Positions 10,086 to 62,105 of a DNA stretch of 64,000 nt are shown piece by piece (position 1 is the stretch's first letter; every line of letters begins with the position of its first letter). The notes beneath the pieces were generated by a model, which saw only the letters and a program-made list of their open reading frames with translations, did not search any database and was not told the DNA's origin. Location of the stretch: NCBI GenBank assembly GCA_002633005.1, contig NMRA01000349.1:62001-126000 (forward strand), read 5' to 3'. Made by a program: the position numbers and the translations under genes. The stretch is from Phoronis australis. Its lineage: Eukaryota; Animalia; Phoronida.

Positions 10086-10691
10086 TCAGATACCTTCCTG
10101 GATTATGGACTTGATCGTTGAGACAATCCCATCATAATTTTTCGCATTTCCAGCCGATAGTTTACCAGAATTATAAATTTGCCAGACTCCACTGCGTTTG
10201 CACATGGAGCACATTACAACTGCTTGAGAATGACGAGCGTGTTTGAAAGATGTCGAACACAGATCTTTGTGTATGTCTGAAGCTTCATAAAACTTTAAAC
10301 TAGGGTTTGGGTAACGTGAAATGTTTGGTGAACTCCATGCGCTGAGTGTGAAAAATAAATGGGTTATGTTTTGTGACATTTCTTTCAATTTGACATTTAT
10401 TGTATGATGACCTATTCTTTTTTGGTCGTCCATTTTGTCACCTGAATGTCGTATCGCTTGATTTTTTCTGTGCCCATAATCAACTACAAATAACAAGTTT
10501 GTGCCACTAAATGCGAGGCATGATGCATCAAGGTAGTCTCTACCAGAAGACGGATACCCCCAGAACAAATCAAAGATAACGTGATTAAACTGGTCGGGAA
10601 TAGCGTACAGTAAGACCACGAGATGCAGTGTCTGGTGAGCTTGTATGCCGTAGTCTTGCAGTTGTGCTAGGGTGCCATTTTTTCTTTGAAC
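10086..10691 (-). CDS. RING-Ubl-TerD-like gene copy A, last exon (C-terminal half of Ubl + TerD-like domain)
   Basis: Acceptor tttcag|GTT at 10691, 606 nt to TGA. LQDYGIQAHQTLHLV matches ubiquitin LSDYNIQKESTLHLV. Then LFWG..DYLDASCL, HSGD, I.VKL..ITHLFFTLSAW, QAVVMC..GVWQI: TerD-family pattern. About 78% aa identity to paralogue at 61500-62105. Confidence 0.85.
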   Translation of the reverse strand, partial: VQRKNGTLAQLQDYGIQAHQTLHLVVLLYAIPDQFNHVIFDLFWGYPSSGRDYLDASCLAFSGTNLLFVVDYGHRKNQAIRHSGDKMDDQKRIGHHTINVKLKEMSQNITHLFFTLSAWSSPNISRYPNPSLKFYEASDIHKDLCSTSFKHARHSQAVVMCSMCKRSGVWQIYNSGKLSAGNAKNYDGIVSTIKSIIQEGI

Positions 10692-10837
10692 CTGAAATGG
10701 ACAACGATCTATCAGAATTATTACACCACGGGAGACACAAATCCCATATAAACAACGATAACCATCCCCTAAACGTTTGCTCTTGTAGTTCTTAGTTTTT
10801 ATCCCACAATATTAGCACCAAATGGCAGATACAACCG

Positions 10838-11669
10838 TGTAATAATCCATTAAGTTATCTCACTAGTGAGATAACGATTTGGCGGGAAACCGAGGACGGA
10901 GTCGAACCCCGGACCTTGAGTTTGTTGGTCGCCGACCTTAACCACTACACCACGTAGCGGCTGACGTCATCAAGAGTGAAAATAGAATACTTAAATGAGC
11001 ACGCGCAATAATCGCATGTTCAACAAACCGCATTGTACTGTACGTATACTCTACGAAAAATAAGACACATAATTTCCATAAAAATGACATCTTAATTCAA
11101 TGAAATATTTCTCTCATGTCCTCTTACTTGTAAATCACCGATCTCCAGTTTGAATGCGGGTATCGTGTCGTCAGGATCTTTGGCTTGAGAATTATATTCA
11201 GTTACCAGTGGTAACCTACTTTAGCAGACGATAATTTCCCGGTCGAAGCTTAGCGTGAAGAAAACGTGTTTTAAGCTATAATAGTTGGTAAACCTTACTT
11301 TATAAATTCAATTTATTTCTATAATATTTAAGTTTTCAATTGGTTTTGAGTAAAAGCAATATTTGACAAAAATAACCGGGCTTTTCTTAAAAGGTCACGA
11401 CCTCCGACCCCGGCCTCTGACATAGAAAGTAGTTACAAAGCCGTGGAGAGTCAGAAAAGGTAAATCGATTCATTGCAATGTTTCTCGTTTAGTATGTGGT
11501 ATAAATAGATTATTACATGTTCTCAGCCGTTATCCCCCTTATCTAGAGCCCACGTGGATTTTGGAGAATTATCACCCTCGGGGCTGACGCCCCTCGGGCG
11601 ATAATTCTCCAAAATCCACTCGGGCTCTAGATAACGGGGGATAACGACTTCGCCATGTAATAATCTATA
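10838..11669. mobile_element. Non-autonomous element in intron, containing a tRNA-like segment and a ~165-bp terminal palindrome (class uncertain, possibly Crypton-like)
   Basis: Begins and ends with tgtaataatc(c/t)at; near-perfect hairpin 11505-11669; 3' part repeated at 7965-8215 and 13585; hairpin-end fragment at about 3675-3730. Confidence 0.55.
10888..10960 (-). repeat. tRNA-derived (SINE-head-like) sequence with Pol III A and B boxes
   Basis: Minus strand TGGTGTAGTGG (A box) ... GGTTCGACTCC (B box); acceptor and anticodon stems do not pair well, so not a functional tRNA. Confidence 0.6.
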
Positions 11670-11948
11670 TTTATCAATAGCTGAAAAGCGTTCAACGCAT
11701 AATTGGCTGCGCACCAGCCGCGGCGTTTTGACTACAGGAACACTGTTGTAGATAGTGAACATACGACATCGAGTCTCTCATTTCAAGATGAGCACGAGGA
11801 CTTTAGGGACTCCCACGCCCAAAGCCGACTTTACGCTATTATATCCGATTAGAATAAGCTAGACGCCATTGAAAAGTGAAAACCTGAAAACAAACCGACT
11901 TCACATTGATTCGAACATATCCGCATGTCTACAGAAAGTGGAACTTAC

Positions 11949-12269
11949 GTCAACATCCTTGCCGTTGAACAACAGTAGCTGTTTAGACTCCTCGTGACCT
12001 TGTCTCTGAAGGATGATCTGTTTTAATTGCAGTATAGTCATTGAAGGGTTAAATGGCACGAAGATACTTTCCCCCGTCAACGTTGAAATTCGAATGTTGG
12101 CTTCAGTATCGCCGCTAGGTTCGGGGGCGCTGAACTCAACGTTGTAGGTGGGGAAGAGATAGGCAAGCCTTAGTTGAATGTCTTTGATAGCTGGTGACTC
12201 GGGGGTCACTTGGGCAGCGCAGTTCATGTCCGGACATTCTGGCTTCGAATGGACACTCTTGACCACACA
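11949..12269 (-). CDS. RING-Ubl-TerD-like gene copy A, middle exon (end of RING + N-terminal half of Ubl)
   Basis: ttgtag|TGT at 12269 and GAC|gtaagt at 11949; 321 nt, phase 0/0; CVVKSVHSKPECPDMNC then IRISTLTGESIFVPFNPSMTILQLKQIILQRQG..KQLLLFNGK, clearly ubiquitin-like. Confidence 0.85.
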
Positions 12270-12681
12270 CTACAACAGGAAGGTGCTTTACAAGCAAGGT
12301 TTTGTTTACGTTTATTGATTTAGGTATGAAATCCCTTTTAGAATTGCCCTCAAAAAGCTAACGAAATATATTTTCCACACAAAGGTATACGCTTCACGAA
12401 AGGCTAGTCTCCTTTAGTCTAACGCATGGTAGTCCCAAGTTGGCGAAGCCGTTTATGTTGTGATGTACCTGAGAAAATATACATTGCAAATTGCGAACTT
12501 AATGGGATTGTATGTTTTCGACTTAAAATCCGATTAGAAATGCTACTTGTAGTAAACTACTTTCATTCAGCCCGGGTATCGTCGCTCCATTTTCATCACA
12601 ATCGTATTTTGCCGGGAATACTTTAAAACACGTTTGTTGAAAACATGTTGTGAAATAATTTGGAAACCGTTACATACTTAC

Positions 12682-12780
12682 TCTCATACACGCACGTGAT
12701 ATATGATCACATTTTTCTGTCAGTGGCTCCGGGGGAAATTCTTTTGACAGTTTCTCTATTCCGCATATAAAACACTTCAT
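12682..12780 (-). CDS. RING-Ubl-TerD-like gene copy A, first coding exon (RING finger N-terminal part)
   Basis: Not in the ORF track. ATG at 12780 (acceptor ttttcag 8 nt upstream); MKCFICGIEKLSKEFPPEPLTEKCDHISRACMR|gtaagt. Splices in phase 0 to complete C-x2-C-x17-C-x-H-x4-C-x2-C-x10-C-x4-C. Confidence 0.8.
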
Positions 12781-13342
12781 ATTGCAGGCTGAAAATAAAC
12801 CATGGTTTAGTACATTCCTGTGCTGTACTCAAAACAAAAATTGCATCGCAAGCAGGTAAAATCTATAACTGCTCGATATTATTTGATGTCACCAACTGAT
12901 GCTGGGTGTTGACGACTTTAATAAGTGTCAGCCATTGTTTTGTAACTTTCACTAGACTGGCCAACGCTTAAACTTATTTGTCCCCTGCTTATATGTAGTT
13001 GTCAAGGTGCTTGACTAAAGCACTTTGGGGTTTAAAAACATTACCACGCTTTTTCAGTCATGAAACTCTGAAACGTATTTCTCGAGTCGCTCATGATTTC
13101 AATGATTTTGTTAGTAAAAAAGTAAATGACCTTATTTGATTTTAGTTTTAGACATCTAATTAACGCGCGAAATGCAGCTTAAAGATGTTTGCCACCTGTT
13201 ACGTCATTGCAGGCCAGTAGCAAGGTAAAATTTCACTCTGGGGGACACATCTAAATGCGACATCTTTAAACTTTACTGCCTGCCAGGTAGGTATCGTTTT
13301 CTTCCCCTTGTCCTCCCAAATTTTGTTCTGTTGCCACCACTT

Positions 13343-13583
13343 CATGCGCGCACCCAGCCTTTAATATGTCAGGCTCGATTTTTTCCGACGACGTGGACCT
13401 TTTACTGACAAAAAAGCCCGAAGTACTAAAAAAAATTTTAAAAAAATAAAACGGGGTAGCACGTCCAGGGCTGTGAATTGTGCGTTTACGCCTTTTCAGT
13501 GGATTTTTGTCTCGTTTTCTCGGACTTTTTGTTTCTCCGAGGCGGACCTTTTTGTCCACTTCGCCAAATGGGGGGACTCTTTT
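13343..13583. mobile_element. MITE copy 2 (CATGCGCGCACCC family), truncated at single-N join
   Basis: Left TIR and internal sequence match 955-1175; ends at n 13584. Confidence 0.75.
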
Positions 13584-16500
13584 NACATAGAAAGTATTTA
13601 CAAAAGCCGAGGCGAGTCGGGAAAGGTAGTTCGATTCACTGCAATGTTCATCGTTCAGTATGTGGTATAAATAGGTTATCACGTATACTCAGCATGCACT
13701 TTCATCCTCGTCAAGTTCGCATCTCTCCAATTTCCACTCTCCACTCTGTCACTGAAGTGTCTGGACTTTGCTTAGACTGTTTGGGCAGCAAGTGATATAG
13801 AGTTTCCGAAACTTCGCCAAAATTCGCTGAAGCATTAATTTCTTAAGTTTTGTAGTTAAAATGCAGGATTTACTACTAAAGAGACTAAAATTCCGCCTTC
13901 CGTCAAGAAATAATTGACTGTTTGTTCTTGCTCAAGATAACGCCTGATAAGTTCGCTTGACACGGCGTGTCATTTTGTGCACCGAGTATGGACTCAAGCA
14001 CTTCCGAACTGGCACTTTTTCCATGACCTAGAAATCATTCTTCACCTAAATGAGGAAGACGAGGGACCGAGCTTTAATCATTGTATAGTAATCGAAATTT
14101 ACTAACTCAAAATTTCGAATTCATGATCATACGGTCATGTGATGTGGCCAACAGGGAGCGTGCAAACTGGACGTAAATGTTTGTAACTCATAATTATTTT
14201 TGTCATTTTCCGTCCTACTTTTCAGTGAACTCAAGATAACTGTTTGTTGTTCTTTGCTCCTGTACATTATGGTTTGCGCATATGAGTTCTAGTCCATGCA
14301 AGTTGGCCCTCAATGACCCCTAGATTCGAGCTCTAAGTTCAAGTAAAAACTGAAAATTTTCGAGTTCACACTCCAACACCCTTTCAAGTAAATCATACTA
14401 TAAGTTACTCGAGTACGGCATGATACACACTTATGCTGAGTTAGCAAATTGCACAAATAATTTCAATTTCGTTTACAAAAATTATACCCCAGGTCCAGTG
14501 GTTTTATAACGGATAATGGTGTAAATCCAAAGTTATCTTTTGAAAACCACGGTTGGGTTTGTTACCGCTCTTGTAAATTTGTGTTTTATATATTTTTAAG
14601 TGATTCCCGAAGTCGCACGCACACAGATGCCAAACGAGCACCCGAAGACAGATGGGCGACGCAGTACCATAGCCCACGGGCCAGGGAGATTTAGACCCTT
14701 CCTTAAAATAATGTTAAAGATTTTGCACTTCACTAAAAAGTCATAGAAACTTATTTACGACTGACAATATTTTGAACTCTTTGAATCTGAAAAAGTCAGA
14801 CAACCAGTGACATGTACTCGGCCATAATCCCATCTCACTGACCGTCTGACCTACACAGAAAGTATTGTACGTAAAACTGTCTTTTCATGCATCGTGTCTT
14901 CCTCATAACCATCTTCAAAATAACTACTGTTCAATTGTAATCCTTTGTCATATAAAACCACAAGAACTGTTGTTTTTCTGCAATTCCTCTTTGGCTCATT
15001 TATGACACTTTGCTTTACGAATACTACGGTGGTGGGAAACTGGGAACAGCAGACCGTCTCAGTCACCACACCTTTTTCGAAGAAATCATTAACGCACAAC
15101 CTATATCCTACAACTAATACTAATAAAAAGCAGGTAAAGGAAGAATACCGAAATGAGCATCTAAAGAAAACGCTAGAAGTTGTATAAATCGAGCTACTTA
15201 CGTTTATCGGCATTGATTCTGTGATAGCAGTGGAACTAAAACATTTGTACTTTACAAACGACAAGGAGAAACTATGTTTTCCGCCCAACCGACGTAGATT
15301 GAACCTGCTGCCTGACTAGCAACATATAGGTCACAAAGACCATAAAGCCACCGTGTTTTGATGCACAAAAGAACACCACGAAAAAATATTCTTTTGTTTT
15401 CAAGATGACTTTTTCTGCATATCTTTTCGCTATTTCGATTTGATCATCGTTTTGAAATTTTATTGAAATAAGCTTAGTATCAATTATTAATGACAGCAAA
15501 TGACGTCATTGTATTGGAGCTTTCGTTACTACATAAGCGAGTAAGCCGCAGACAAGGTGTTCTTTGAAAGCGCTCTACTGCAGTGAAAGGTGTTGCTTTA
15601 TTACATTTAAAATGAAAGAAGTTCTTACAACTTAAATGTTTTTGATAGACAGACTAGGTACAGGAAACCGATAGGTACGTAACAATTACTACTAAGTGTG
15701 ATAAATTTTAGCCCTCAACGTTACACGTGGACAGTGCCTCAGTAGCTGTAGGAAAATGACTGGGTACACGCAGGACGCGGCCACGGAATGTCAATGACAC
15801 TATATACAACCTGTTATGTTGTGTGAGGATCACCTATAGCTATGACTTTTCCTCATAACAGCATCATTAAGGTTCGTGGATTTTCAAGAAGTATTAGGTT
15901 AGTCTACTTTTTCTTTACTGACCTATACTTAGGTCGGTCGATGACGAGCAATACAACTACGGTTAGTTCCTGGCAACAGCCGGTTCGAGGTTTTAGATTA
16001 GCTGGACTCCGCTGGTGAATCTCTTTTTCTTTGTCACCTTCCGTTTCCCTGTGCGTTTCTTATTGTCCTCCCCGAGCTCCCCAACTATATCGTGGAGGCG
16101 TTTAGAGACCAAACTTGTCCTACGCAAGAGACGTACACTATGCCTAAGATAGGTAGAAAACGATCTTCTGACTTTTTGCGTCTAGATTTTTTCAGTTCTA
16201 GTGTACACTCATTAAAAATGTAATTTACTGCGAGTTACGTGTCTTGCGGAGGATGTAGGGAACTCGGTTCATTTCGAAGAAATTATGTGTTGCGTACATG
16301 TATTTATTGATTAGGACACGATAAGCCGTACAGTGCCGTGATTGGTTAATTTTGGGAAGAATTATATCTTGTTTCATCAGTGAGGGGTCACGGGGATTTG
16401 TGATATGTTTGTACAATGTTTTGTTACATTTTAAGTAAATATGATAAAATCCATAGTTTATTACAGTAATAACATTCCTGTCTGATTTTCAACAAAATTA

Positions 16501-17301
16501 TACTATGAACAGTAATTATTTCGAGAACCGAACGTGATTGCCGAGAACCGAGGCTACAAAAAGGAAACTGGCCCAAATTGAAAAAAATGAAACCGTTGCA
16601 GCCCTAATAAATAGCTATGGCAATTTTCGCTCAGACTCGTGGCAAAGATATTTTACTACTATGTGCAACTATTTCTCCTATAGTATCTGTTTTATTTCCA
16701 CGCTTTATTTGACAAGCCTGGAACCTCGTGTGCCGTGTTCAGTCGCTTGTGATACATGAACACGCTCGTTAGTTTCCGTGCGCAATTCTATTTTACTAAT
16801 GTACACAACAACGTCACAAGAAATGGACGAACTTTGTATTGAACGGGATTGGTGGTGAGCCTCATAAAGGAAATTTCGAAGAAATCACGTGACATCTATT
16901 ACGCTTAAAAATGAAAATCTTCAATCAAGTATTTCTTGGAAGAATGTTGCCGAAGAAACACATTACGGTGGCATTATAGATTATGGTGAATATAGTCGTC
17001 GAAAAGGTTGTACCGTTGAAGTGTCAACAAATCCAAGATTTGATTTATACCACTTACCATTACACGAAATTGGTCTATTTTTTTCAAATTGGAGGTTATT
17101 TCAGGTCTTGAAAGAACTGACAATTCGTTTTCCAATTTTGAGTTACACGTGAGTGTCAACAAGGAATAGTTTCTGAATCTAATGAAGCACCCCTTCCTTA
17201 AAAAATTCTGTGGATGATGCTAGTACACGATGACTTAAGTCAAATTTACATTTCAGCTGTGTTAGCATGTAATCAGCGCACGAACAGGAACACAAACTGA
17301 A

Positions 17302-17329
17302 ATGGCGAGTGAACAAGGGGCTCCATTTG
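17302..17329 (+). CDS. RNF213: RNF213-like gene, putative first coding exon (MASEQGAPF)
   Basis: gaaATGG start context, G|gtaagt donor, phase 1 matching the next exon; acceptor tttcag at 17256 implies an upstream 5' UTR exon. Confidence 0.55.
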
Positions 17330-20300
17330 GTAAGTTATTCGAATATGTCAGTTGTTGGTCAACTTTATATGAGGTAAAGCCTACATTGAATTAATTAGCA
17401 AGACCTACTGTATATGTTGAAAATCGATGCTGGTGATTCGAATTTCAAATTTCAAAAAAAATATTTTCCTTGTATTTCCGTAAGTCGTGAAGTCGTGTTT
17501 GCGCAGATTTGAAATCTGATGTTAGATTAGACCATACACTGTACATGCACCGCCAACTCCGTACATTTTCAATGGACGAAATCTGTGATGTTACGCACCA
17601 TGATGTCATTCACTAGCGACACCTGGCAGATATAGCACGTTTTCCTTCCGGCAACTACGTCGTCTGCTCATCATAGTCATTTCGTCAGGATTGGGCGATT
17701 TTGCCCAACTCACACCCGTGTTTCAATAAATTGAACGCTCGGAAAACGTTAACTTTGTTAAGCTTATATTAATACTCCAGAAATAACTACACCAGGCCTA
17801 CTCATTACCAATCTGGCACTTCAACAGAAGTTTACATACTTAACAGCAACTGGACGTTTCATTTTAAGCTCGAATACACTTCGGTGTAATATTGGCAGAC
17901 CTTGAACAGCATTTCAATGCCGAAATAATGTTTTTCGTTGTGTTAGACAGTTAAATAGATGAAAGAGTTTCCCGTCACAGTACACTAACCGGAAGCTGAG
18001 TTTGCTATGTTTAGAGGGTGGCGCTTCCTCTAGGATATTTCGTAAGAAAATGTCGGAGTTGCGAATCTGTTGTCTCTAATGTATGAAAAGACGGAGTAGG
18101 GAGACCGGGGTAAGTCTCCCACTTTTCGGAAAAGCTGCCGTACAGTGGAAGCTGTTAATGCCAGGTTTATTGATATTTGTCAGCTTTACAAATTCTTATT
18201 ATCTGAAATATGGCATTCTTTAAACGATTATACGAAAAATTGTGTAAATGTAATGTCAGTTTAAACCAACGGAGCTCAAAGCGGTGAACTCGACGCGGGC
18301 CGGGACGAGTTTGATCACTACAGCATCCTTTATATAATGGCCATTTTGATATTTACAAGAAAATTTTTAAAGCTGTATTTCCTCCTCTTTAGATGATTAC
18401 AAAAACAAAATCTTATTAGGCCTTTTACTCTCGTAACATTAGTCTATTGTTTGCAACCGTTGAGATGACAACCATTTTTGAATTTTGTGTGTTTTGAAAT
18501 ACTAGCAGTCAGACTTGGCTTTTTATAACTGATTTGTGCAAATATATTGCATTAGTTTTGCTCGGCGTTTGTGTTGTTGAAAAGGCTATTTTGATGTGTG
18601 TGTACACGAGTTACCGTGGCAACTATCTTTGGATTATGCAAATTGTTCTACGTATTGTTATATATCTTTGAAGAAAGGACTATACTAAAGCAAATGGGCA
18701 TTTTAAATGCTTTAAATTTCGTTTTTCTCTGGCGTTCGCAGATTAACTTATTGTTGCAATGCTAGGGATGGCCCCTAAACTGCTTTGAGCATGGCTGCCA
18801 GCTTCTAACATGAGTGCCATCAAGCTTAAAGCTCAGGGTTTCAACAAAGAGTCACTCCAATTACATGTATGGTTGCCTGTTTCTATAATGACTTTCCTCT
18901 CAAACCTGAAATTGATGATTTTAAATGATAAAATATTGGATACTGTGGCAACAGTGCATGTTTCAGCTTGATTTACCTTACTAAGTTGAGCATGGTTGAG
19001 AACTTATAACATGACTTTGCAATAAAACCTGATTTTGGCTGCCTGACCACCGCTTCGCACAAATAACATGAAAGCGTGATGCAAAACCCGTGTAAATACA
19101 TTAAATTTTTAACCTAAAAAGTTATTATAATGCATAATTGCCCAGTTCCAGACACATTCCACCGAGTTTGCTCCCCGGCACATGTTATCGTTTTCGTGTC
19201 TGCCCATTTCCGCTAACCGTTGAAATAATCTTCATGAAAGTTTGCATTTTTATCGTTTTCGTTTCTGTCCGCCCCATCTGAAAATCGTTGTGAGAATCAT
19301 CATGTCCCCCTCAAATTCAGTTCTAACCAGTTTCGTAGTTAACTGGTCTGTGTTACCGATGTCCGCGTTTTCTTCGTATACATGTATAATCAGTGAGAAG
19401 AAAGTGTGACCAAAGTACGTTGTTTCCAAGCATATCCAAGATTTCGCTTCAGCATTTGTTCAGTCTTTGCATTTTTGCCTTCATGTCTCCTTAGAGCGAT
19501 TCCATATCGAACTAAATACTAGAGAAACTCAATGATCAAAGCAAGAGTATAACGGCTTGTGTTTTGCGTTTGTGTCGGTGTCTTGTTAGTTAGTGTAACA
19601 TACTCCTGGTGCAACTTAAAGCGGCATTAACCCCTGGTTTTAGTCATGAAAACGAGCTTTGACTTAACGTTGTAAAATTGGCCTTGTCTTGTTCCTTACT
19701 CAGTTTAGAAGTGATTTCTGGGCTCAGAGAGAACTGACAATTTCTTTTTTCTTCACGGCAAAGTTGCAAAAATTTAGGCCCCAGCTACTAGAATTTTCAT
19801 AAGCTTCGTTTGAAGAAATAACAGAATGCCAGTTCTTTCAAAAACACTAAAATCATTGGCTAAGGAACAACTTTGATCGTAAAGAGAAGTGACCCAAATC
19901 AGAACTCTTATTTTACTGATAACATATTTCCACATTAAGCCGCATCCTTTCCATGAGCTTTTAAGCTTCCCAACCGCCTTCTTCCACTTCCAGGCGTGCG
20001 TGTGAATTAATGCTCGGTCTAAACTCGGTATATGGATAAGGTCCCATTTTGAAAACTGTTGTACGAATATGAAAACGTGCTGTATCATTCTTTTCGTTGC
20101 AGTTCAAACACTGAAATCGATCAATTCAGGTCGTCTAAAATAGTCGCTACAGTGTGCCAAACACTTTTTGAAATTTGAAACTTCAAGGAGTTGTCTTTGT
20201 CTTCAAATAATGCTGCCTGTTTGGAAACTGACATGGATTATAAAGTTCTGGCGTTTTGTTGCCGCTAGAGTCGCCCCGGTATTTCTTTTGTTTTTATCAA

Positions 20301-20480
20301 CATGACGAGTCAAATCAATTCAACGGCCTCCTGAATTTTCTTCCCATTGAGGAACGTCTTTTTGAAATGTCTTTGTTATGTCAAGAAACTGGCGGGATTA
20401 TCTATTTAGTTAAAAAGTTATTGCTTGGGTCCCCATATTAAATAGGAACGCCGTTATGACCATACGTTGCTTCTCTGTGA

Positions 20481-22450
20481 TTTTTATGCCCCCACATTTT
20501 TTATGTGTACTGTAGGAATTATGCCGTCATCGGCGTCCGCTGCTCTATCTCCAAAACGCCTTGACGTAGGCCCCCTATGTTCATCAAATTTTGCACATGT
20601 GTTCCTTCCGTGGATGGGACGGCATGAGCGAGCCTTCGGACGGATCCGACTACCGGTGTGCCCCCTAATGGCAATTTAATTTTTTACGTTTACCTCTGTA
20701 TCTTCAAAAGTCCTGAACGGATTTTCATAAAATTTGGTATATAGGCACCCATTAGTGAGATGACGCTGTCCTCTTGTTTCGGATGGATTAAATGTAGTTT
20801 GCGCCACCTAGTGGCCATTTTTACTGTTTTCGAGTCTGTTATTTTTTGCGTCCACCCTTCTATCAACCAAACCGCTCAAAGGATGATCGTGAAAATTGGC
20901 ATGTATGTTTTTATTACTAAGTGGGCGGCTGACGAGGATTTTTCGACGAGTTCGACTACTGTGGCGCCTCCTAATGGCAGTTTTGTTTTGTTTTTCTTGC
21001 ACTCATGGCTGTAACTCCTAAACCGTTTGCGGGATCTTTACTTAATTTAACGTATGTATTTATATGATGTTGACAACGGACAAAGATGACTTTCGGACGG
21101 ATTTGACTACTGGTGTGCCCCCTAGTGACAACTTTAGTTTTTTACGTTTACCAGTCTGTATCTTCAAAAGTCCTCAACAGATTTTCATAAAATTTTGAAT
21201 GTAGGCATCTATTGGTGAGATTGGTGAGATGACGCTATCATCCTGTTTTTGGATGGAACCAAGGTATTTTGCGCCACCTATTGGCCATTTTTGCTGTGTT
21301 CAAAACTTGTTTTTGGCATCCACCCCTTGATTTACCAAATCATTCTAGGGATGGTTTTAAAAATTGGCCTATATGTTTTCAGTGTGAAGAGGACGTTTGA
21401 TGAGGGGCGAGTGACTACTGTGGCGCCTCCTAGTGGTATCTTTGTTTTGTTTTGTTTTGTTTTGTTTTGTCTTTCGCCCATAGCTGTATCTCCAATGTCC
21501 ACTGCAGGATCTTTTTTAAATTTAGTAAGTGGATTTATATGAAGAAAACAGACGACTTTCAAGCGGATCGAACGAACTCTGTGCCCACAAGTGGCAATTT
21601 CATTTTTTGTTCGGTTTTCCTTTGTTTCTCTGAAGTTCCTTGACAGATGTTGGATGTCTGTCCTGTTGGTGAATCTTCTAACTACACACACTGTATAGCG
21701 ACAGTGCACTTGCTGGTCACCGTCTCTGGTGATGCAACACTAGCAGGCAATTTCTTCTACCCGCGATTCTTCTTGCTGGTCACATTCTCTGGCTGATGAC
21801 GCAACACTTCAGGTAGTATCTTACTACCCACGATGCAAGTGACAAGCTCTTAGTTAACTTCCTGTTCGTTAACCCTTGCCCTTGCCAAGATCCTTTCTAG
21901 AATCATCCACGAGATGGCTCTGTTGTACAATTGCCTCTGTACACCGTAGCAAGTCTTAATGCTTCAACTACTATAGCGCATCTCATTATCTTGCTGATTT
22001 CAGCCCATAATATAACATTCTACTTATTTAGTGATTGGCTAATAAAAATCACATGATCATGTCCACTCATATTATTGGCTGTTACAATTTGTTCTCAGAA
22101 TTTTCAAGAATCTCTAGAGTACTTTGACCCAAGAACCCAAAGTTGTAAACACCATCTAAAAATAGATTTTGGCGTTAAAGTACATGTCAACAAGTCTGAT
22201 CCCATCATTTAAAAGTACATATCCACAAATTTTGGGCAACTTAAAATGGATCTATTCTTACTAATTACTTAATCAATATTTATTGACATATGGCATGTTC
22301 CCGTTTTTGGATGGATTGTACGTTTTTGCGCCATCTAGTGGCCAGTTTTATGATACAAATAAATAACCCTAAAAGCACACCATTTGCGATGCATTCGTGG
22401 GCGCATTTCAACGCTCTGCAAGATGCCAAAAGCAATACCCATGCATTCGC
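20481..22450. mobile_element. Helentron/HINE-like non-autonomous element with internal ~155-bp tandem repeats (intronic)
   Basis: Starts ttttatgcccccac; imperfect inverted match gtgggcgcat near 22397; repeated units containing aaa(t/c)ttgg and gcgccacctagtggc motifs with ~460-bp higher-order periodicity. Confidence 0.5.
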
Positions 22451-22754
22451 AATTGATTTGAACCAATTATGCAGATCATTGGATATGCATATGCTAAACG
22501 GTCGAAGGTAAATCCATGTGCATTCACATTTGTTTCAGGACGATCTGTAGCCTAGCATTTTTAATTTCTACTGTTTTCCCCATCTACCTATGCAAATGAG
22601 GGGTTTAAACTCGTCATTCGAGTGTCTAGTGTGTCCGAAATATCGAGTGAAGTTCTGCAACCCTTTTTCAGGTACATTTTGGTATGCGGAGTTTACTTGC
22701 TGAAATTCATATATGGTTTTATGTTGTGTGCTTCACACTTTGAATTTATTTCAG

Positions 22755-23157
22755 AGTTCCCTCTTCATTTCTGTTTGAGTGTTAAGAAAGGTGGAGGCAA
22801 AGAACGTACTGTTGATTCTCCTGAAAAACTTCGAAAACTGCTTCACTTTCTTGAAAAGAAACGTTCCACTATCAGTGACTTCTTCTCCAAGAACTACGAA
22901 TCTGTTTCTGTACACAAATTTGAGTTAGTTGGCGATGCAATCCACTGCGTCACTCAAGTAGCTACAAAGGCGGGTCTGAAATTGCTATACCAGGCAACTA
23001 ATAATGATTTGTCGTCTAAGCTTACGACAGTGTTGGACGTTCATGGTCTTCAAGATGCCGTGGGTTCTCAGCATGATGAGTCATACATCATAAGCGTGGA
23101 ATTGACAAGGATGTGGTACAAAAAGGGAGAGGAACACTTTGACGATCAATCGGAAAG
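22755..23157 (+). CDS. RNF213: RNF213-like gene exon 2 (possible TRADD-N-like domain)
   Basis: tttcag|AG at 22755 and AG|gtaaaa at 23157; phase 1/2; open 403 nt. Confidence 0.7.
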
Positions 23158-24560
23158 GTAAAAGTGCAGATGTAGCCTAAATTCAACTTTATATGGATAG
23201 GGATCGATTTTTACTGATAAGTTATCCTCCTAAATACAGAGGCTATTTTGCTGAACTAGAACTTAACAGATGTTATTAGTGTCTGCCAAGAGTTGATACA
23301 ACTCAGCTGTTTCCGGTGTTATTGAAATTATTTTAATAATATTTAAAAAGCTAAAATGGATGTTAAAGTAAAACTCAATTGCATAACAAGTTAAAGATAT
23401 TTTGCATTGCAGTAACATGGCATAAACTTTCACTTTTGTTAAGCTGAAGTACAATTACCTGAAGGAAATAACTCGTTATTACCACTACAGTCGTAGCGAG
23501 ACAAAGTAAAACCAACGGAGAAATAACGGAGATATTAAATACCATAACAAATATTTAGTTATTGTTTGCGACTTTCTGGCAGTACGAGAAGATGAAAGCA
23601 TGATTTTTTCAACATAGGTGCAGCTAATGTGTGTGCTTAGATATAATTAATAGCATGCACTGGCACTAATGAATTGGTGACATATTCTGAATTTTCCCGG
23701 TGTTCTTGTGGTGGTTTTCGATCTTAAGTGATGTCTTTAACACCCTGAACGGAATGTATTACCTAGCCTGTTTGACCATTCTAGCACTTCCTAGTGGCCA
23801 CTTTGTTCTCGTCAATAAGGGATTTTGAAGTGTAGTTTGTGGGAAAAGCTTTTCCGGATGATATCACTACAATCGACTGACGGACTTAGATAAAACTTGA
23901 CACACAGGTTTACGGTATCAATTGCCCTGTACCATTTGATTTTCTGATGATTTGACCAATGCGGCATCTGTTAGTGACTATTGAGGAAAGAGCATTTGAG
24001 GACGGTCTCTTCTGAACCTTGATGCATTTTAATAAAACTTGACACAGATCGTGCAATTGCTATGGTATGGTAATTTTGCAATAAAGCGCACTGGATTTAA
24101 GACTCGGTGAAAACAGAAATTGGCCTACAGATAGCGCTCAAGAAGTTTTATGATGGCGCTCCCAAATTTGACACACGTGATCACCCTCACAACTTAGCTG
24201 TAACGGACTAGCATAATTCTTTTCGAGCCTATAACAAATTAGTTTAATTAGGGAAGAGTCTAGCTTTCGGAGAAATTAAGTTTATGTACGATTTTGTTTT
24301 CCCACTTCTTACTAAGATCGTTCCAAAGCTGTATATTCATTAAAGTTTTTAACAAGATTAAAATCATTAGCTTACCATTCGTGATTCATTAATGTCGTTT
24401 CCACATCAATGTTTTACGTTGCTGTGGTCTGATATGACACTTCATTGCCTATAATTCACAAAACTGCAAAAATAATTTTAATGCATGAAAATACAAGTAT
24501 TTGCATCATACAGTTAATGGCAAAGCCGTGTGAATGCAATTCTTTGCCGTTTGTTTCCAG

Positions 24561-24723
24561 TCTGCCGCCTGCTGTGCCAACGAGTAAGGGCCAGACAGGT
24601 GGCATGGGTGCCAAGGGTAACAACAAAGAAGTTGATGGATTAAATACATTGAGTGACATCACATCTGGTCATAGCGCCCGACAGCAATCTGACAAAACTC
24701 CTTCATCAACAATCGACCCTCAG
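24561..24723 (+). CDS. RNF213: RNF213-like gene exon 3 (low-complexity linker)
   Basis: tttccag|T and CAG|gtaact; phase 2/0 matches neighbours. Confidence 0.7.
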
Positions 24724-26639: not shown

Positions 26640-26765
26640 TGTACGTATGTTTGCATGTGTATGTATTTTTAATGTATATGCATGTATGTATGTTTGAATG
26701 TATGTGTGTATGTATGTATGCAAGTATGTATGTATGTATGTATGTATGTATGTATGTGTGTATAT
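26640..26765. repeat. (TATG)n microsatellite
   Basis: tatgtatgtatg runs, repeated at 27131-27182. Confidence 0.9.
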
Positions 26766-26776
26766 GTCAAATAAAT

Positions 26777-35411: not shown

Positions 35412-35412
35412 G

Positions 35413-45200: not shown

Positions 45201-47941
45201 TTGCTTCGGACGTGCATGATGAGTGTTCAGTTACTTTCTTACTAAAAGCCTTTCACGAGAGTTTGAGTTTTCAAGAATCGATCCTGCTGATTAATGAATA
45301 TACACTGAAAATACCTTCTCTCCAAAGGATTAAGTGGGCAGAAGACGATTTTGTTAACCCTTTGGGCTTCAAAGTGATGTCAGAAGTTGCCGGTTACCAG
45401 CAGGTCTTTGCAGGTTTTCGGCATTTTCTATCAGGTGACAATTCTGATGTAAAACAACTAGTCACTGAAGCTTCAAATTCGGCAGAGAAGAAGTTCGCTC
45501 TTCTGTCTGTTGTGAATGACAACCTTTATCTTGTTTCGGGTCAACGTGAACTCAAAGACACCGAAAACCAAGCAGGATGTGTCGTTGCAAAACTTTTTAA
45601 AGACGTCAATGTCCCTGCCTTGCTGATAAATCTTATAAAATGTTTATGTCAGGAAACGAAGTTCCACTTGCCAATTTTAAACTTATCCCCTGCAACATCA
45701 AAGTGTGACGTACAAATCGCTTCCGTAATGATTCATTTGGTTTGCATGACTGTGTCTTTTGCTGACGATGGTCAGTGTTTGTTTTCCAAAGCTATTCGTG
45801 ATCCTTTAAGCTTGAAGAGTCTCTTCATTCCGTCTGCTCAGCATGAGAGCCCCACTCACGAAGATATGGATAAAATGGGTACTTACGAATGCGTGTGCTT
45901 ACATAAAGTTGTAACAGCGACGGACAGATGTCCGGTGTGCCACACAACCTTGATGAGACCGACAGAGACTGTTTTTGAAGCTGAAATACCATCAGCTCAG
46001 TTGAAACCACCTAAGGGTTTCTGTCGCTACAACCCGTCACAAGATTGTCCACGTGGCATGTCCTCCACATCCTTCTTCATTTGCAGACTGCTCTTGAACA
46101 GTAGTATTGCAACTGGATATGCGTTGATGAAGTGTGATCTCACCGATATCTATAACCAGGATGGAGTAGTTTTATCCCATGACACGGCGTTAAAGTACAT
46201 CACAGAAGAGCTCAGAGAGATGTGGGGAATTTTAGAATCTTTATTTGAATTGCCTTCTCACCAACTTTGCTGTTTCATGCACGCGCTTCTTCGTAGATTG
46301 CAGCCCTTTTTGACCGATTGCAACCGTTCATTTGCTACAGTTGAAGAAAGAGCAGAGTGGGAGCAGATCTTTACGAAGGAAGTGGACGAACTTATCAGAG
46401 TTAGACATCGCGTTATACGACAAACCATGATCAATACCATCGTGACGTCTGACAATAGCGTTGAGTCGGCAGTCGATGAGCTGAATGATGCCAACACGAC
46501 ACTAGCAAGACTGTTTAGGTTTACTCCCTTGAAATCCACTGAAAAGCTGTTTGGCTTATACAAGCTTAGTGAATTGGAAATCAAGAATCCATTTCTTGGG
46601 TTATTTTTCACCTCTGGTAAGCAACTGTCTATCCTGCGATTTCTGAAGCCTCTTCTTAAGTGGCAAAAGTTGATTGCAAGTTGCAAAAGCCATCACCTTA
46701 CCCGCAAGCGCTCCGGTGAAACCATAAGGCAGGTAATCAGCGAACACAAAGACCCAAAAGAAAAGCAAAAACTGTGTGATGTGTTTGACGAGTTTGCCAA
46801 GGCTTGGAATGAAATTCGTCCGTCTCTGAAAGCTAGTGGTACATGCACCTCTCTTCCAATATTACACGAAGACTGTAAAGTTTATGAATGCGTGGCTATC
46901 AGTGAGGAGTCAACCGTGTACAAAGTGATTGAATCGCTCGTCCACATGCAAAACTCTTTCTTAGACAAAGTTCTAAGACTGGCCGTTTCGGGGAGGTGTG
47001 TTGCTTTGAGTTTTCTACTTAGAGAATCCTTTGCAGCGGTTGTCCCTATAATTCCTTTGGCTGAGGCGGAGTTGTCGCACATTTTGGACTTATGTTGGGA
47101 AGATTTAATCACTGACTTGCTAAGACTGTCTCAGTTTAACACAGTTCGAGGAATGGGTAACGATTTGGAATTTGACTTCACAGCCATTGAGATCGAGTTG
47201 TCAGGCATTTTGGTCTATGGAAAGGCACACCTTTTGTTGGACTCCAGTTTCCCTTTCTTTGCATTTGCTCATGAATTTCCACGTAACTCCACAGTCTTGG
47301 CGCAGATTGGAAAGACAATATCACAGAAGGCACTTCCTGACACGGCAGTTACGCAGCTGAAGGAACTAAACAACGCCAACCCACTTAATACCACGACGTT
47401 AAAGTTCGACTTGGACATCGTCGTTGATATGCTCCAGAAATCGCGCTCGCAGCTGGAATCACCTCAAACATCTATCTTGGACTATGCTGACAGATGGTAC
47501 ACTGTGTTGAACAAACATTTTCCTAGAGACCTGTTGCCGCAGCCAGGGAACTCTTTAAAACTTTGTCATCTGGTGTCTTTGAGTGATACTCTTGACGAGC
47601 TGCTTTCTCATAACTCGGAAGAAAAACTCATGGACAAGTACCGAGAACAGCTGGACAAAACCAATGAGGCAGAATTGCAGACTCGTCTGAGGAAAACGAC
47701 CGCTGACCTTAACTCTGTCATCAAGTTGCTTCGGAGTTTCATTTACAGGTACTTCTCCACACGTGAAGACCTGATCCCAGACGAGTCGCAACCATTGATC
47801 AACCTGTTAATGGCTGAGTGTCAATCCAGAGACGGTCAAGATGATCAAATGTTTATGAAGGAACTCGAACTCCTGTTCACTCCAGTTGTACAAGTACAGC
47901 ATTCATATACAGCCGTAAAGCAGGTCAAGCAAGTTATGCAG
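36292..47941 (+). CDS. RNF213: RNF213 (mysterin)-like giant dynein-related AAA+ ATPase, exon 7 (11,650 nt)
   Basis: 3890-aa ORF with RNF213-family motifs: PGLGKS, LTPDNLLKM, VPVLIMGETGCGKT/LFMDEINT, LVYRVYPLPESMIDYVWDYGSL, VSLRDV, IPIFVVGKPGCSKSLS/VVLLDEIGLAE, GISNWALDAAKMNR, FHGLRDYY, SLYDMLNQ, PPFLNRFEK. Acceptor catttcag|C at 36292, donor CAG|gtattt at 47941. Confidence 0.93.
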
Positions 47942-48451
47942 GTATTTTTTTCTTATTTCCTCCATGAATATTGAATATTTAGATCTACACGTAAGAAATG
48001 ATAATTCCCAGATATTCAGTAGTTATTTCAACCAACAACGGAGTTCAGTGAACAGACAGGATGACGCATAAACGTCTGTGGTCAGTAAGTAATTAAACGG
48101 ACACATTGAGTTTTATGGTCGAAAAACGAACTTTTAGGATTATTGTTGGATGGTATAGACGTCTCGAAGTTATAAGCTTTGACCAGAGCTACAAAACAAG
48201 ACACTCCGTTGTGTTTTGTGGATTTTATTACAAATCGCCAATTCTCATTGCTGGCTGGCAGTCGTCTGTTGAAAACGAGGTCGGTGATTTTATCACTTAA
48301 ATACGATTAAATAATTGGCCGTATCTATCTCGGGATATTTCTCAAAAATATTTTCCTCGACGATTGTTTCACTCTTAATGTATAAGAAATTTTGTGGCAA
48401 ATGATTATTTAATTTATTGTGTAGTTTAATGAATATTCGTTGAATCTTTAG

Positions 48452-48547
48452 GAAAAAATGAAACCCCAAGAGTACGTAAAGAAGGTTGCCGATGATATCA
48501 AGAAACCTGCTCAGAAAAGAAAGAAAGTTTTCATCCGGAAAACGTGA
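48452..48547 (+). CDS. RNF213: RNF213-like gene putative last exon (EKMKPQEYVKKVADDIKKPAQKRKKVFIRKT*)
   Basis: tctttag|GAA, phase 0, basic tail and TGA. Other acceptors (48011, about 48261) or read-through to 47974 cannot be excluded. Confidence 0.55.
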   Translation, partial: EKMKPQEYVKKVADDIKKPAQKRKKVFIRKT

Positions 48548-50589: not shown

Positions 50590-50912
50590 AATATACCCAT
50601 GCTTTGAATGAGTCTTTATTTGAGAGAGTTTGTCTGTATATACAGGGTATCATGCTTATTACGACTTTTAATTACTGGCGTATCCGACTTCCAATCACCC
50701 GTTGTGTGCTCATCCAAGTACACATACGACTCGAGGTTCCGGCTCTTACCGTTGGGAGCACGCAATTACAGAATTTGTTGGTTTTTGGTTTGCATTTAAC
50801 TAGACACTAATAAACCCATGCTTTGAAAGTCTTTTTGAGAGAGTTTGCCTGTATATGGAGGACATCATGTTAATTACGGCCTTTTATTATTGGCGTGACC
50901 GACTTCCATTCT
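50590..50912. repeat. Diverged local tandem duplication (~220-bp period)
   Basis: acccatgctttgaa...ttgagagagtttg...ggcgt..ccgacttcca at about 50596 and 50814. Confidence 0.7.
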
Positions 50913-51506
50913 GTGGCGCACGGGGAAAACGCTGTTCGGCTACGTTCGCAGAGGTGGTTCGTAGGAAAGATTAAGAGATGAGTCTTGACTAGTACATTGA
51001 AGACTGCAAACATTACATGAGGAGAACAACTCTGTGCGGGAAACAACTATTACTAAAAGACATACAGGTGAAAGTGATATAGCCTATGTAGAGAGAGACT
51101 AGAGAGTCGTGTGCTCATAAAAATCGCCACACGACTCTAGGTTCACGCTCTGGGAGCACACAATTACAGTATTCATGAATTAGCCAGTCAATTAGCATAG
51201 CATTTACCATTCATTCGAACCTCTTCAAAAGAAGGTAATTGTACTTTGTAACGTATTAAAGAATTATTATTCGCAGTGCTATTTATAGGATCACTGACAC
51301 TGGCAAAACCAAAAGTTTTTAACACATTGGGCCAAAATTTGATGACCTATGAAGCTACCTTCCGGGACGGTAGGTTCCCTCTTTCCACGGTTTTATGCAG
51401 AACACCAATCTTTGTAATAAGTAATATGTGTTTCCCCAAAAAATAGGTTGATGCATTTTTGGCACACAGTAATTATGCAACCAGTACTTTCATTGTGTTT
51501 CATTAA

Positions 51507-52030
51507 AGGCGAAGGCAACCTTTTTTCATGTCATTTTGAGCTAAAATAAGGTTGGTTGGTTATCCTAGACATATTTTCCACTTAATTACAGCTTTTCGTA
51601 ATTTTGTTGATTATTTGTCCGCTACTCCGGAAGTGACGTTTTAGGAGGCAAGCATTTCGCGCCAATTTCTTTTCATATAGTCTGACTGTGAGAGCTGCCA
51701 AGTCAGTCATTGTTCTACCTCGGTTGTGCTAAGTTACGTCGTCGTTTGCTTTCATTTACTAGTCAGTCAACATGCCACATTGTTGCTGCTTACCGGGATG
51801 TACTCATTATCGTCTCACACGCGCTTTTGGAGTACCTTAGCATCACTTTCCGATGGATGACACACTTCGCCGTACTTGGCTCGTTCGTGTGAAGAACGCA
51901 GCGTTACCCGTCCACGCAACGTACAAAGCAGTCGAGAATTTCCGTGTGTGTGGCAAGCACTTTCTGCCGTCCGATTACGAAAGGGATTTGTACGCTGAAC
52001 TGATGAAGGTCCCTGCGAAACAACGCCTGA
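51507..52030 (+). mobile_element. 5' end of a THAP-domain DNA transposon (Kolobok-like) inserted at TTAA
   Basis: ATG at 51772: MPHCCCLPGC...P*HHFPMDDTLRRTWL...RVCGKHF..SDYERDL = THAP C2CH with one in-frame TAG. Starts AGG right after TTAA and is absent from the duplicate segment. Confidence 0.7.
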
Positions 52031-52031
52031 N

Positions 52032-52682
52032 TTAATTACGGCCTTTTATTATTGGCGTGACCGACTTCCATTCTGTGGCGCACGGGGAAAACGCTGTTCG
52101 GCTACGTTCGCAGAGGTGGTTCGTAGGAAAGATTAAGAGATGAGTCTTGACTGTAGTATATTGAAGACTGCAAACATTACATGAGGAGAACAACTCTGTG
52201 CGGAAAACAACTATTACTAAAAGACATACAGGTGAAAGTAATATATGTAGAGAGAGACTAGAGAATCGCGAATTTTCGTGTGCTCATAAAAATCGCCAGA
52301 TGACTCTAGGTTCACGCTCTTACTGTTGGGAGCGCACAATTACAGTATTCATGAATTAGCCAGTCAATTAGCATAGCATTTACCATTCATTCGAACCTCT
52401 TCAAAAGAAGGTAATTGTACTTTGTAACGTATTAAAGAATTATTATTCGCAGTTCTGTTTATAGGATCACTGACACTGACAAAACCAAAAGTTTTTAACA
52501 CATTGGGCCAAAATTTGATGACCTATGAAGCTACCTTCTGGGACGGTAGGTTCCCTCTTTTCACGGTTTTATGCAGTACACCAATCTTTGTAATAAGTAA
52601 TATGTGTTTCCCCAAAAAATAGGTTGATGCATTTTTGGCACACAGTAATTATGCAACCAGTACTTTCATTGTGTTTCATTAA
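52032..52682. repeat. Duplicate of 50870-51506 across a single-N join (probable second haplotype)
   Basis: Near-identical ~640 bp with a few SNPs/indels. Confidence 0.85.
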
Positions 52683-59390: not shown

Positions 59391-60559
59391 TGATGTTGAG
59401 TGGTGGAGTGTAGGCTGGGGTACAGCTTTGTCCAAACCGTTCAAGATACAAGTACAGATGATTAGTTTAAATCTGATTTAGTGGCCTCCATTCTAACTCG
59501 TATGTCAAGAAAAATGAGCATTGTCAACCAGCGAAAAAAAAAATTATTCAGGGAAATAAAAATATGTTGATATTTATGTACCATTATTATTACGTTAACA
59601 ACTTCATTTTCAAAAAAGGTACATTCATAGCAAAATATCCCAATTAAAAGAGATTCAATAAAATCAACCGAGGGGTTGTTTTGCCACGAATGTACCTTTA
59701 TTAATGAAAACTTTACCAATTGCCTCAAAAAGCTGTTAGAAATTTTCGAATTCTTTTCCTTTAAATTGGTTTCTATGACAAATCAACTCGCAGAACATAA
59801 AATATTTTTGTAAAAAATAAAAGTTGTATTCGTCTGTGTTACATTACGCAAAAACCAGCAAAAACAAGGCCTATATATCGAAAATCCAAACTGCGTTTTT
59901 GAGATTGATTAATAAATGTAAATGTAAATGTGCACTGCATATATGTTATTTCATTTTCATTTTTCAGTATTACATGGGTATTACATTATTCTTTCCTCCA
60001 CATATACCTCGGTACCATCACCTGCTCGGTTTAGTCACCCATTGGGGGGTTAGTGAAATTTACGAGATTACCCGTATTTCGTTAAAAGTCAGTTGACATG
60101 CTGTTCGGAAGGACAAACTGGATTATTTATATTGCTAATTATTTCTAACACACGTTCCAAGTAGATTCTCAGTCGTGCAAAGAGCCTAGTTTCTATTTCT
60201 TCTTGGCCATTCAAAAATGGTGGAATGTCAAGTTAAATTTGTTATTGCGCCAAATATCCGTCAATCAATAAGTCTCGGTCTACGTCAATTGAATCTACTA
60301 GAAAATACAATCCCTCAATATTTACAGTAACGTTTCCAACGTCACTGTTGTACAGTAAAAGTAAAACGACGAGCTTCGGTACAGAAATATATTAAAATAT
60401 TCCCCAAGTTTCGAGCGGTACGCTCTTTATCAAGGGCATGACAAAGGTGAACGCATGGTGATACACAACATACAGTAGGAACAAAATCACTCACGACAAC
60501 TAACAATGGGGTACGCATGACCTGAGGAAGGGTTTAGATAGAAACGGATATGTAAATGC

Positions 60560-60820
60560 TGCAGTCTATTCATAACATACTTTTAGTGAGAATACCTGTC
60601 CCTATTTAAACCTTTGGCGTGGATACTGAATCCGGCAATGAACTCCGTAAGACCATTTTATGCCATTTTCTGTTCTATTCAATTGTCCACCATTCTTGAA
60701 AATAATTACGTTTGATTTCTTGATATTTACAGACAGACAAATTCTATTTTAAACAAAAATTTTCAGTACGCCTATTGATTCGTCTCCGTAACTAATCAAT
60801 GGAGTCGCCAAGATACGTTT
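60560..60820 (-). mobile_element. LINE RT remnant
   Basis: LSVNIKKSNVIIFKNGG matches the same motif in the other two LINEs. Confidence 0.5.
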
Positions 60821-61499
60821 TCCACCATATACCAGGCTTTTGTTTTTCTTTCTTTTCATTTTTGTTCGTTGAGAGCTGAATAGTCACCGGAGATCAGGAT
60901 GAGGGCGTTCTCCGACTTCCGAAAAAAGGTCTCTGATGCGTGTTCCATGACTTTTGAGACCGTTTTTTTCGTCTATTGGCATTGTCCTTTTTGTTTTATG
61001 TTCTACTTTTGAGGTTTAGGAAGAGGACGCGCTGTAATGTCCCCACAGATCCAACTTCAGGCTCAGTTTTCGTGTCGTGGAGATATGGATGCCTTTACGC
61101 GAAATACCAAAACGACCTTCCTTGACATGCAAATTAGGCACAATTGTCTGAAGCTAAGAAACCTACGTTGCCCTCAGAAATTATTTTCCCTCGTTTCGGA
61201 ACTTTCATCATCATCCTCCTCTCCATCATAATCACCGACCATGTCCCCAATTTCCAGGGCTTCCTTTGACCCTGGATCTCCTTATTTGCCAAAACCCTGG
61301 GAAGCAGACTGCTTTACAACATAAATGAGGGGCGATAATTTATGCCGAGTGTTGAGGCACATATTGACCACTATGGAAACGACAATATATGTCGGTGTTC
61401 ACGGCACAAAATGTCGCACCCGACAGGTCCGGGCTAAGCAGATGACGCAATTCACCACAATAAAACTCGTAATGTCAGTTAACTTTTGCTTTTGTAACT

Positions 61500-62105
61500 T
61501 CAAACACCTTCCTGGATTATAGACTGGACAGTCGACACTAGTCGTTTGTAGCTTTTCGCATTTCCGGCGGAGAGTTTTCCCGAGTTATATATTTGCCAAA
61601 CTCCACCGACCCTGGACACAAAGCACATAACTACGGCTTGGGAATGGCGGGCATGGTTGAATGACGTCTTACACAGGTCCTTGTGTTTATCTGAAGATTC
61701 AAAAAACTTCAAGCTGGGGTTTGGGAAACGTGAAATATTGGGGGAATTCCAAGCACTGAGAGTAAAAAACAGGTGGGTGATGTCTTGAGAAATTTCCTTC
61801 AATTTCACATGAATTGTATGATGTCCTATTCTGTTTACATCGTCCATTACGTCACCAGAATGCCATATGGACCGGTAAAGTTTGTGTCTGTAGTCCACGA
61901 TAGCCAGTTGTTTGGTTCCACTAAAAACCAGGCAGGACGCATCCAAAAAGTCGCAACCATTCGCAGGATATCCCCAGAATAAATCAAAGATGACGTGATT
62001 AAACTGGTCGGGAATAGCGAACAGCAAGACCACGAGGTGCAGTGTCTGGTGAGCCTGTATGCCGTAGTCTTTCAGTTGTGCTAGAGTGCCATTTTTTCTT
62101 TGAAC
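61500..62105 (-). CDS. RING-Ubl-TerD-like gene copy B, last exon (upstream exons not found; probably beyond window end)
   Basis: Acceptor ctgcag|GTT at 62105; exactly 606 nt like copy A; intact frame; same Ubl and TerD-like motifs. Confidence 0.82.
   Translation of the reverse strand, partial: VQRKNGTLAQLKDYGIQAHQTLHLVVLLFAIPDQFNHVIFDLFWGYPANGCDFLDASCLVFSGTKQLAIVDYRHKLYRSIWHSGDVMDDVNRIGHHTIHVKLKEISQDITHLFFTLSAWNSPNISRFPNPSLKFFESSDKHKDLCKTSFNHARHSQAVVMCFVSRVGGVWQIYNSGKLSAGNAKSYKRLVSTVQSIIQEGV

Follow-up and report, generated by a model that had tools for sequence, protein, structure and literature searches.

A candidate split RNF213 system in Phoronis australis: an RNF213-like ATPase without ligase sites and its RING-Ubl-TerD neighbour

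Can a giant RNF213-like ATPase that lacks the ligase sites of its mammalian relative obtain ubiquitin ligase activity from the product of the gene next to it? This question is raised by a 64,000-nucleotide stretch of the Phoronis australis genome (assembly GCA_002633005.1, contig NMRA01000349.1, positions 62,001 to 126,000 of the forward strand; the whole stretch is called the window here), which contains a gene for such an ATPase and, on either side of it, a gene for a small protein assigned a RING, a ubiquitin-like domain (Ubl) and a TerD domain. An earlier, sequence-only reading of the window had proposed that a motor and a small ubiquitin ligase (E3) are paired at this locus. As described below, the gene pair is real, conserved and apparently undescribed, and we consider that the small protein may well bind the ATPase and supply ubiquitin ligase activity in trans, a reading to which we assign a probability of about 0.45.

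Kinship and missing ligase sites of the ATPase

The ATPase gene lies on the + strand and consists of eight coding exons that give a 4,822-aa frame without an internal stop, in agreement with the roughly 4,820 aa originally read. Among PDB sequences the protein matched RNF213 only (nine chains, best E 3e-126), and a family profile matched human RNF213 in four stretches running from the stalk to the C-terminal module (E 1.5e-27 for the stalk stretch). Of 199 homologues, 198 retained both main Walker A motifs. The C-terminal 1,199 aa were modelled with AlphaFold2 from 21 sequences; the model had a mean predicted local distance difference test score (pLDDT) of 80.8 and a predicted template modelling score of 0.72, and all eight of its significant Foldseek matches were RNF213 (E 1.6e-17). 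Residues 41-1036 of this model aligned with the human E3 module (residues 3857-4979) at a Z score of 24.3 (next 6.8), with a root-mean-square deviation (rmsd) of 8.1 over 823 aligned residues, the phoronid span being 127 residues shorter than the human one. When phmmer was run with the C-terminal 818 aa alone there was no PDB match, whereas the profile and the fold did match. The protein is thus like mammalian RNF213/mysterin (PDB 6tax, 7oik, 8s24, 9g08, 9jwg) in size, in its stalk, in an AAA+ core with Walker motifs, in the E3-module fold and in having a zinc finger at the RZ position. No Pfam match to CBM20 was found in the two long N-terminal exons. Directly ahead of the E3-module fold there is an acidic linker predicted to be disordered (44159-44280, + strand).

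The phoronid protein differs from mammalian RNF213 in having no RING, in a four-cysteine knuckle without a nucleophile, in the absence of a recognisable docking spacing for the ubiquitin-conjugating enzyme (E2), and in its conserved RING-Ubl-TerD neighbour, a gene for which there was no vertebrate match among the matches listed. The E2-docking spacing known from mouse (F5092, W5097, D5101, Y5106) was found in 0 of 199 homologue C-termini, the structural alignment ending at human residue 4979, before this site. A search of the ATPase model and of every open stretch in the six frames of the window found neither a RING nor a full RZ motif, and no RING family of Pfam matched the ATPase. The description of a RING-less ATPase therefore stands, and a hidden RING exon, which had been named as a possible refutation together with a hidden RZ exon, was rejected. 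In the homologues, the expected RING site contains no insert and spans 149-187 aa.

According to two reports, the active site of mammalian RNF213 is the RZ finger and not the RING (PMC11549300; bioRxiv 10.1101/2021.05.10.443411), so that loss of the RING alone would not be the key defect. Human RZ holds zinc through C4505, H4509, C4525 and C4528 and uses C4516 as the nucleophile (PMC11549300); the mouse equivalent of C4516 is described as strictly conserved and essential, and the RING as dispensable for auto-ubiquitylation (bioRxiv 10.1101/2021.05.10.443411). At the RZ position, the phoronid ATPase has a zinc knuckle of the form C-x-C-x10-C-x2-C, the only conserved cysteine cluster of the protein. 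This positional homology was derived from offsets and not from a residue-level alignment: long-frame residue 3364 aligns with human residue ~4667, and the last knuckle ligand lies 130 residues upstream, compared to 139 for human C4528. At least three of the four ligands were kept in 175 of 181 homologues, and any cysteine between the two pairs occurred in 16 of 181, at scattered places. The shortened RZ-like finger of the sequence-only reading was therefore correct as to the shortening and needs the refinement that the catalytic cysteine is absent too. Judged from its sequences, the whole clade keeps the zinc knuckle and lacks both the nucleophile and the RING. The ATPase is an RNF213 homologue in which two features that define the ligase-active family are missing.

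Deviations from this pattern were seen in two places. A freshwater-mussel branch of the ATPase (P0126, P0260-P0263) has lost the zinc knuckle itself, and the tag of P0262 adjoins that of a small gene. An unlinked Potamilus paralogue, P0227, has a C-x3-H-x6-C spacing that resembles canonical RZ; because its sister paralogues do not have RZ-like spacing, that of P0227 may be due to chance.

The nearest Atlas clusters of the C-terminal module were RZ-finger (PF20173) proteins, including RNF213-like proteins of molluscs and fungi (scores of 0.85-0.88, which are leads only). The three best of these clusters list no RING family, so the absence of a RING appears not to be unusual outside vertebrates. 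In contrast to these proteins, PF20173 matched neither the ATPase nor the precomputed domains of its listed homologues.

The RING-Ubl-TerD protein and its linkage to the ATPase gene

Small gene 1 lies on the - strand, head-to-head with the ATPase gene, and is spliced from three exons that encode 341 aa. The assignment of a RING, a Ubl and a TerD-like domain was borne out: Pfam matched the Ubl (PF00240, 35.8 bits, cut-off 25.4) and TerD (PF02342, 27.8 bits, cut-off 25.3), and the RING, although below Pfam cut-offs, has all eight C3HC4 zinc ligands. Each of these ligands was kept in 49-53 of 53 homologues, the strict RING spacing was present in 23 of 35 distant full-length representatives, and the only PDB sequence matches of the region were RINGs (RNF4, E 0.006). 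When the amphioxus homologue was modelled (pLDDT 82.2), it showed a TerD fold (Z 18.1 to 2qz7, rmsd 2.3, 157 aligned) and a ubiquitin fold (Z 14.0).

The Ubl passes directly into TerD with no Gly-Gly, and a conjugatable modifier was rejected as an identity for it because the C-terminal di-Gly is missing. The C3HC4 pattern and the integral Ubl are shared with RING-HC E3s (RNF4, PCGF5, COP1) and Ubl-bearing parkin, from which the small protein differs in its RING-Ubl-TerD order. It was rejected as an RBR (RING-between-RING) ligase because only Ubl and TerD come after the RING, with no IBR or RING2; its ligase activity is predicted from sequence.

TerD is the most conserved part of the small protein and shares with bacterial TerD (3ibz, 2kxt, 2qz7) its fold and the DLDAS and HxGD motifs. 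It differs in being fused behind a RING and a Ubl, and in having Gly-His-His, invariant in 53 of 53 homologues, where bacterial TerD has Asp-Asp-Glu. The acidic stretch of bacterial TerD has a role in calcium binding, and the replacement suggests a changed metal or ligand site. In the accessible part of one paper TerD is named once as a possible nucleotide-binding domain, and RNF213 does not occur there (PMC7159879).

The family gave 291 matches near this size and 109 clusters at E 1e-30 or better, with members named in amphioxus, Lingula, molluscs, corals, the fungus Rhizophagus, Planoprotostelium and Physarum; no relative was found in viral contigs. Four relatives (P0346, P0448, P0466, P0483) carry a fused VWA domain, part of a kinase or EF-hands; bacterial Ter systems, too, have VWA and kinase genes among their partners.

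Whether the two genes stay together elsewhere was assessed from locus tags, accessions and equal-sized contigs in the match lists, not from gene coordinates; the lists comprised the best 120 of 291 small proteins, the best 120 of 2,712 and of 304 ATPases, and 30 cluster look-ups. Named assemblies with only one of the genes listed (14 with the small gene, 10 with the ATPase) were left out of the count. Both genes were listed in 16 named assemblies; their identifiers were at most 7 apart in 11 of these, at most 28 apart in 13, and not close in three, and both genes were on equal-sized contigs in 15 of the 16. The four amphioxus assemblies in this count are not independent.

The assemblies within 7 were the amphioxus B. 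floridae x japonicum (LOC144869351/352) and B. lanceolatum (XP_066278598 vs 601), Lingula (LOC106173543/550, on a 354-kb scaffold), Sinanodonta (010123/010124), Mercenaria (XP_053405686/687), Mizuhopecten (OWF52739/740), Mactra (002103/002105), Haliotis asinina (small genes 823-824, ATPase 826, small genes 832-834), Dreissena (186261 between 186252 and 186267), Mytilus californianus (LOC127707897-898 vs 904-905) and Stylophora (LOC111339731/738, on a 292-kb scaffold); B. floridae and Ruditapes (351-kb contig) were within 28. Haliotis asinina has the same small-ATPase-small order as the window. Two further pairs on equal-sized contigs (P0026/P0274 and P0008/P0279) agree with the linkage, and linked ATPases were spread through the family tree (a quick method with 45 rows, unrooted, without a canonical RNF213 outgroup). 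The linkage is conserved across four animal phyla, from corals through molluscs and a brachiopod to amphioxus, as the proposed pairing had called for in related genomes, and both gene families duplicate locally.

In a coral-like metagenome contig (L027), the small gene lies ~4 kb from the ATPase 3′ end on the opposite strand, tail-to-tail, and in a second metagenome contig (L004) the 3′ end of the small-gene contig (4742-4843) overlaps the coding end of the ATPase C terminus in antisense. The ATPase was seen in 2 of 54 metagenome loci; because only 5 of the 54 reach 8 kb, the misses say little. The head-to-head arrangement was rejected as a conserved trait, since small gene 2 of the window and L027 are tail-to-tail; the adjacency in the proposed pairing of a motor and a small E3 was confirmed, and its head-to-head orientation, seen in the window, was not general.

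Gene structures and transcription in the window

The exons and motifs are given in Table 1. Two long + strand frames (32224-34230 and 36239-47974), joined to six short exons, yield the full ATPase frame, and every ATPase intron is GT-AG. RNA coverage was available for 9900-28000; the last four ATPase introns were placed by splice signals, phase and homology only. Run X1 is not on record as RNA, and its contigs are spliced at GT..AG introns; they gave ATPase joints at 15672-17255, 17328-22754, 23155-24559 and 24719-27410, with one or two differing letters per listed piece, and the exon 2-3 joint of small gene 1. Both genes are transcribed in this run. The 50 nt of the non-coding first exon were inferred from RNA contig size and bin depth. 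The head-to-head starts ~4.5 kb apart were confirmed for the two ATGs (12780 and 17302), whereas ATPase transcription starts nearer, at most ~2.9 kb from the ATG of small gene 1.

Table 1. Coordinates of features in the window (positions of the 64,000-nucleotide stretch)
Feature	Position	Strand	Evidence
Small gene 1 exon 1: ATG and RING ligands C3, C6, C24, H26, C31	12780-12682	-	Exon break shared by loci L018 and L028
Small gene 1 exon 2: RING ligands C34, C45, C50, linker, most of Ubl	12269-11949	-	Pfam PF00240, RNA contig
Small gene 1 exon 3: Ubl end fused to TerD, stop	10691-10086	-	Pfam PF02342, RNA joint 10689-11947
ATPase non-coding first exon	~15623-15674	+	RNA contig GT..AG joint 15672-17255, donor site; 5′ limit is a minimum
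ATPase exon with ATG	17257-17329 (coding 17302-17329)	+	RNA joints, frame
ATPase N-terminal coding exon	22755-23157	+	Joined in RNA
ATPase N-terminal coding exon	24561-24723	+	Joined in RNA
ATPase N-terminal coding exon	27414-27476	+	Joined in RNA
ATPase N-terminal coding exon	29212-29286	+	Splice signals, phase, leftover RNA contig size
ATPase coding exon, N-terminal arm	32236-34226	+	Open frame; weak match to Nematostella homologue N-terminus
ATPase giant exon: stalk, dynein-like AAA+ core, E3-module fold, C-terminal domain	36292-47941	+	RNF213 PDB chains, profile
Three Walker A and two Walker B motifs, intact	39008-41400	+	Motif search
RNF213-type E3-module fold, no RING insert	44279-47266	+	AlphaFold2, Foldseek, structural alignment
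Zinc knuckle at RZ position, no catalytic Cys	45890-45940	+	Offset from PDB match and structural alignment
ATPase last coding exon and stop	48452-48547	+	Splice signals, phase
Small gene 2 last exon only (Ubl end and TerD), tail-to-tail with ATPase	62105-61500	-	

In three other runs (X2-X4), the raw reads (~18-19 in 100 of each) placed next to none on the last exon of small gene 1 and on the ATPase exons, and exon 2 of small gene 1 was covered only by reads ~90% alike. This pattern may reflect silence, absence of the genes from those animals or the transcript of a paralogue alike, and we make no claim of co-expression.

The second small paralogue reported downstream was confirmed as a last exon that is 77% identical in protein to that of gene 1; 86 of the 137 base differences are at third codon positions, as one would expect if the paralogue is coding. 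A hidden Markov model of the family found no RING or Ubl exon for gene 2 up to 64000; presumably its 5′ exons lie beyond that point, and its RING is presumed only. A second X1 transcript was ~90% alike to exons 1-2 of gene 1 (12109-12269 and 12739-12756), with matching X2-X4 reads on exon 2, and may be the 5′ part of gene 2.

At 26714-27546, a single N separates the two copies of a 417-bp tandem duplication (98%), each with the 63-nt ATPase exon; X1 RNA joins the second copy and skips the first. This duplication is probably an assembly overlap. A 650-bp pair (94%) that flanks an N at 50870-52682 resembles it. Intronic repeats at 20600-22400 attracted hundreds of RNA reads that continue into unlike sequence, which points to repeats transcribed elsewhere in the genome. 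At 2600-4950 (+ strand), there is a broken remnant resembling a LINE (long interspersed nuclear element) retrotransposon (RVT_1 match at 4695-4943, E 5.7e-07), adjoined by a gap of ~500 N near 5428-5925.

Readings of the gene pair

A motor that lacks both ligase sites, together with a neighbouring intact RING gene kept for more than half a billion years, is best read as a split system. According to this reading, the ATPase would behave like mammalian RNF213 in assembling on the surface of a target, and would recruit the small protein, possibly through its non-conjugatable Ubl; the small RING would then activate E2~ubiquitin, TerD would read a ligand, metal or surface, and the output would be cell-autonomous defence. 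Because mammalian RNF213 is described as binding the Ubl protein ISG15 (PMC8486878), the Ubl of the small protein is a plausible handle. A wider version, in which a ligase-dead coating motor and a RING-Ubl-TerD subunit that senses via TerD and ubiquitylates via the RING date to the common ancestor of animals, fungi and amoebae, is speculative and in our estimate rather doubtful.

Several observations weigh against the split-system reading. The regular expression that found no RING in two overlapping sets of ATPase homologues (0 of 125 and 0 of 82) was used without a positive control. Identifier adjacency is a proxy for gene order, and the genes were 337 identifiers apart in the B. floridae x belcheri hybrid, 623 apart in Tegillarca and on other scaffolds in Potamilus. 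Identifier order tracks gene order more tightly for GenBank tags than for RefSeq numbers. Some clusters of ATPase paralogues have no listed partner (Sinanodonta 016631-016635, Potamilus 002411/002416), which also qualifies the pairing as first proposed. Since orientation varies, no single shared promoter explains the pair. The absence of the E2-docking spacing suggests that the giant protein may no longer handle E2s at all. Finally, a role in immunity is suggested by homology and local duplications only.

In the main rival reading, which we hold to be somewhat less probable, the two proteins cooperate but the small protein acts as a regulator, client or guard and not as a stand-in ligase: the AAA+ ring could grip, remodel or release the Ubl, or the small RING E3 could ubiquitylate the ATPase and restrain it. 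The linkage fits this explanation equally, as do the greater conservation of TerD than of the RING and the missing E2-docking spacing. The nearest PDB match of the ATPase outside RNF213 is midasin, and midasin pulls on Ubl-domain clients. Moreover, RNF213 is described as coating Toxoplasma vacuoles without RZ activity (PMC11549300), which supports the idea that the motor can act without a ligase. What this explanation leaves unaccounted for is why a clade without both ligase sites travels with a RING gene.

The genes might instead be neighbours that share regulation or inheritance within one pathway or defence island, with products that do not touch. The short distance from ATPase transcription to the small gene is consistent with this, as are the local duplication of both families and the occurrence of unlinked paralogues. 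However, adjacency persists while orientation flips, a pattern better explained by selection on the pair than by a shared promoter, and the domain complementarity would be a coincidence; we regard this explanation as unlikely.

Chance adjacency, or a decaying or mis-modelled ordinary RNF213 with its RING or RZ in a missed exon, is largely refuted and very improbable: although there is no RNA over the last four introns and the homologue lists hold the best 120, a single 11.6-kb exon holds both the RING and the RZ site, the full frame is intact, and the losses of ligase sites are clade-wide. Judging from locus tags alone, a gene would land by chance no more than 10 tags from a listed ATPase with a probability of ~0.003 (Sinanodonta), ~0.006 (Mactra) or ~0.0002 (Dreissena), values that would be higher if there are unlisted paralogues.

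A literature search, outside which most subscription papers fell, found no account that joins RNF213 and TerD or describes the RING-less clade, in line with the earlier reading, whose author knew of no description of the pairing. RNF213, the Moyamoya gene, encodes a central pathogen-coating ligase, and the role of its RING and the targeting of its motor are open questions. A motor clade without ligase sites that lies beside one RING-Ubl-TerD gene offers a concrete candidate partner, and the pair provides a first route to the function of a eukaryotic TerD family that is so far uncharacterised. Many invertebrate genes labelled 'E3 ligase RNF213-like' are probably unable to ligate alone. If the split system is real, it would be a natural model of how the RING may act in the fused human enzyme, and, if ancestral, it would be a parallel, undescribed pathway of cell-autonomous defence that vertebrates appear not to have.

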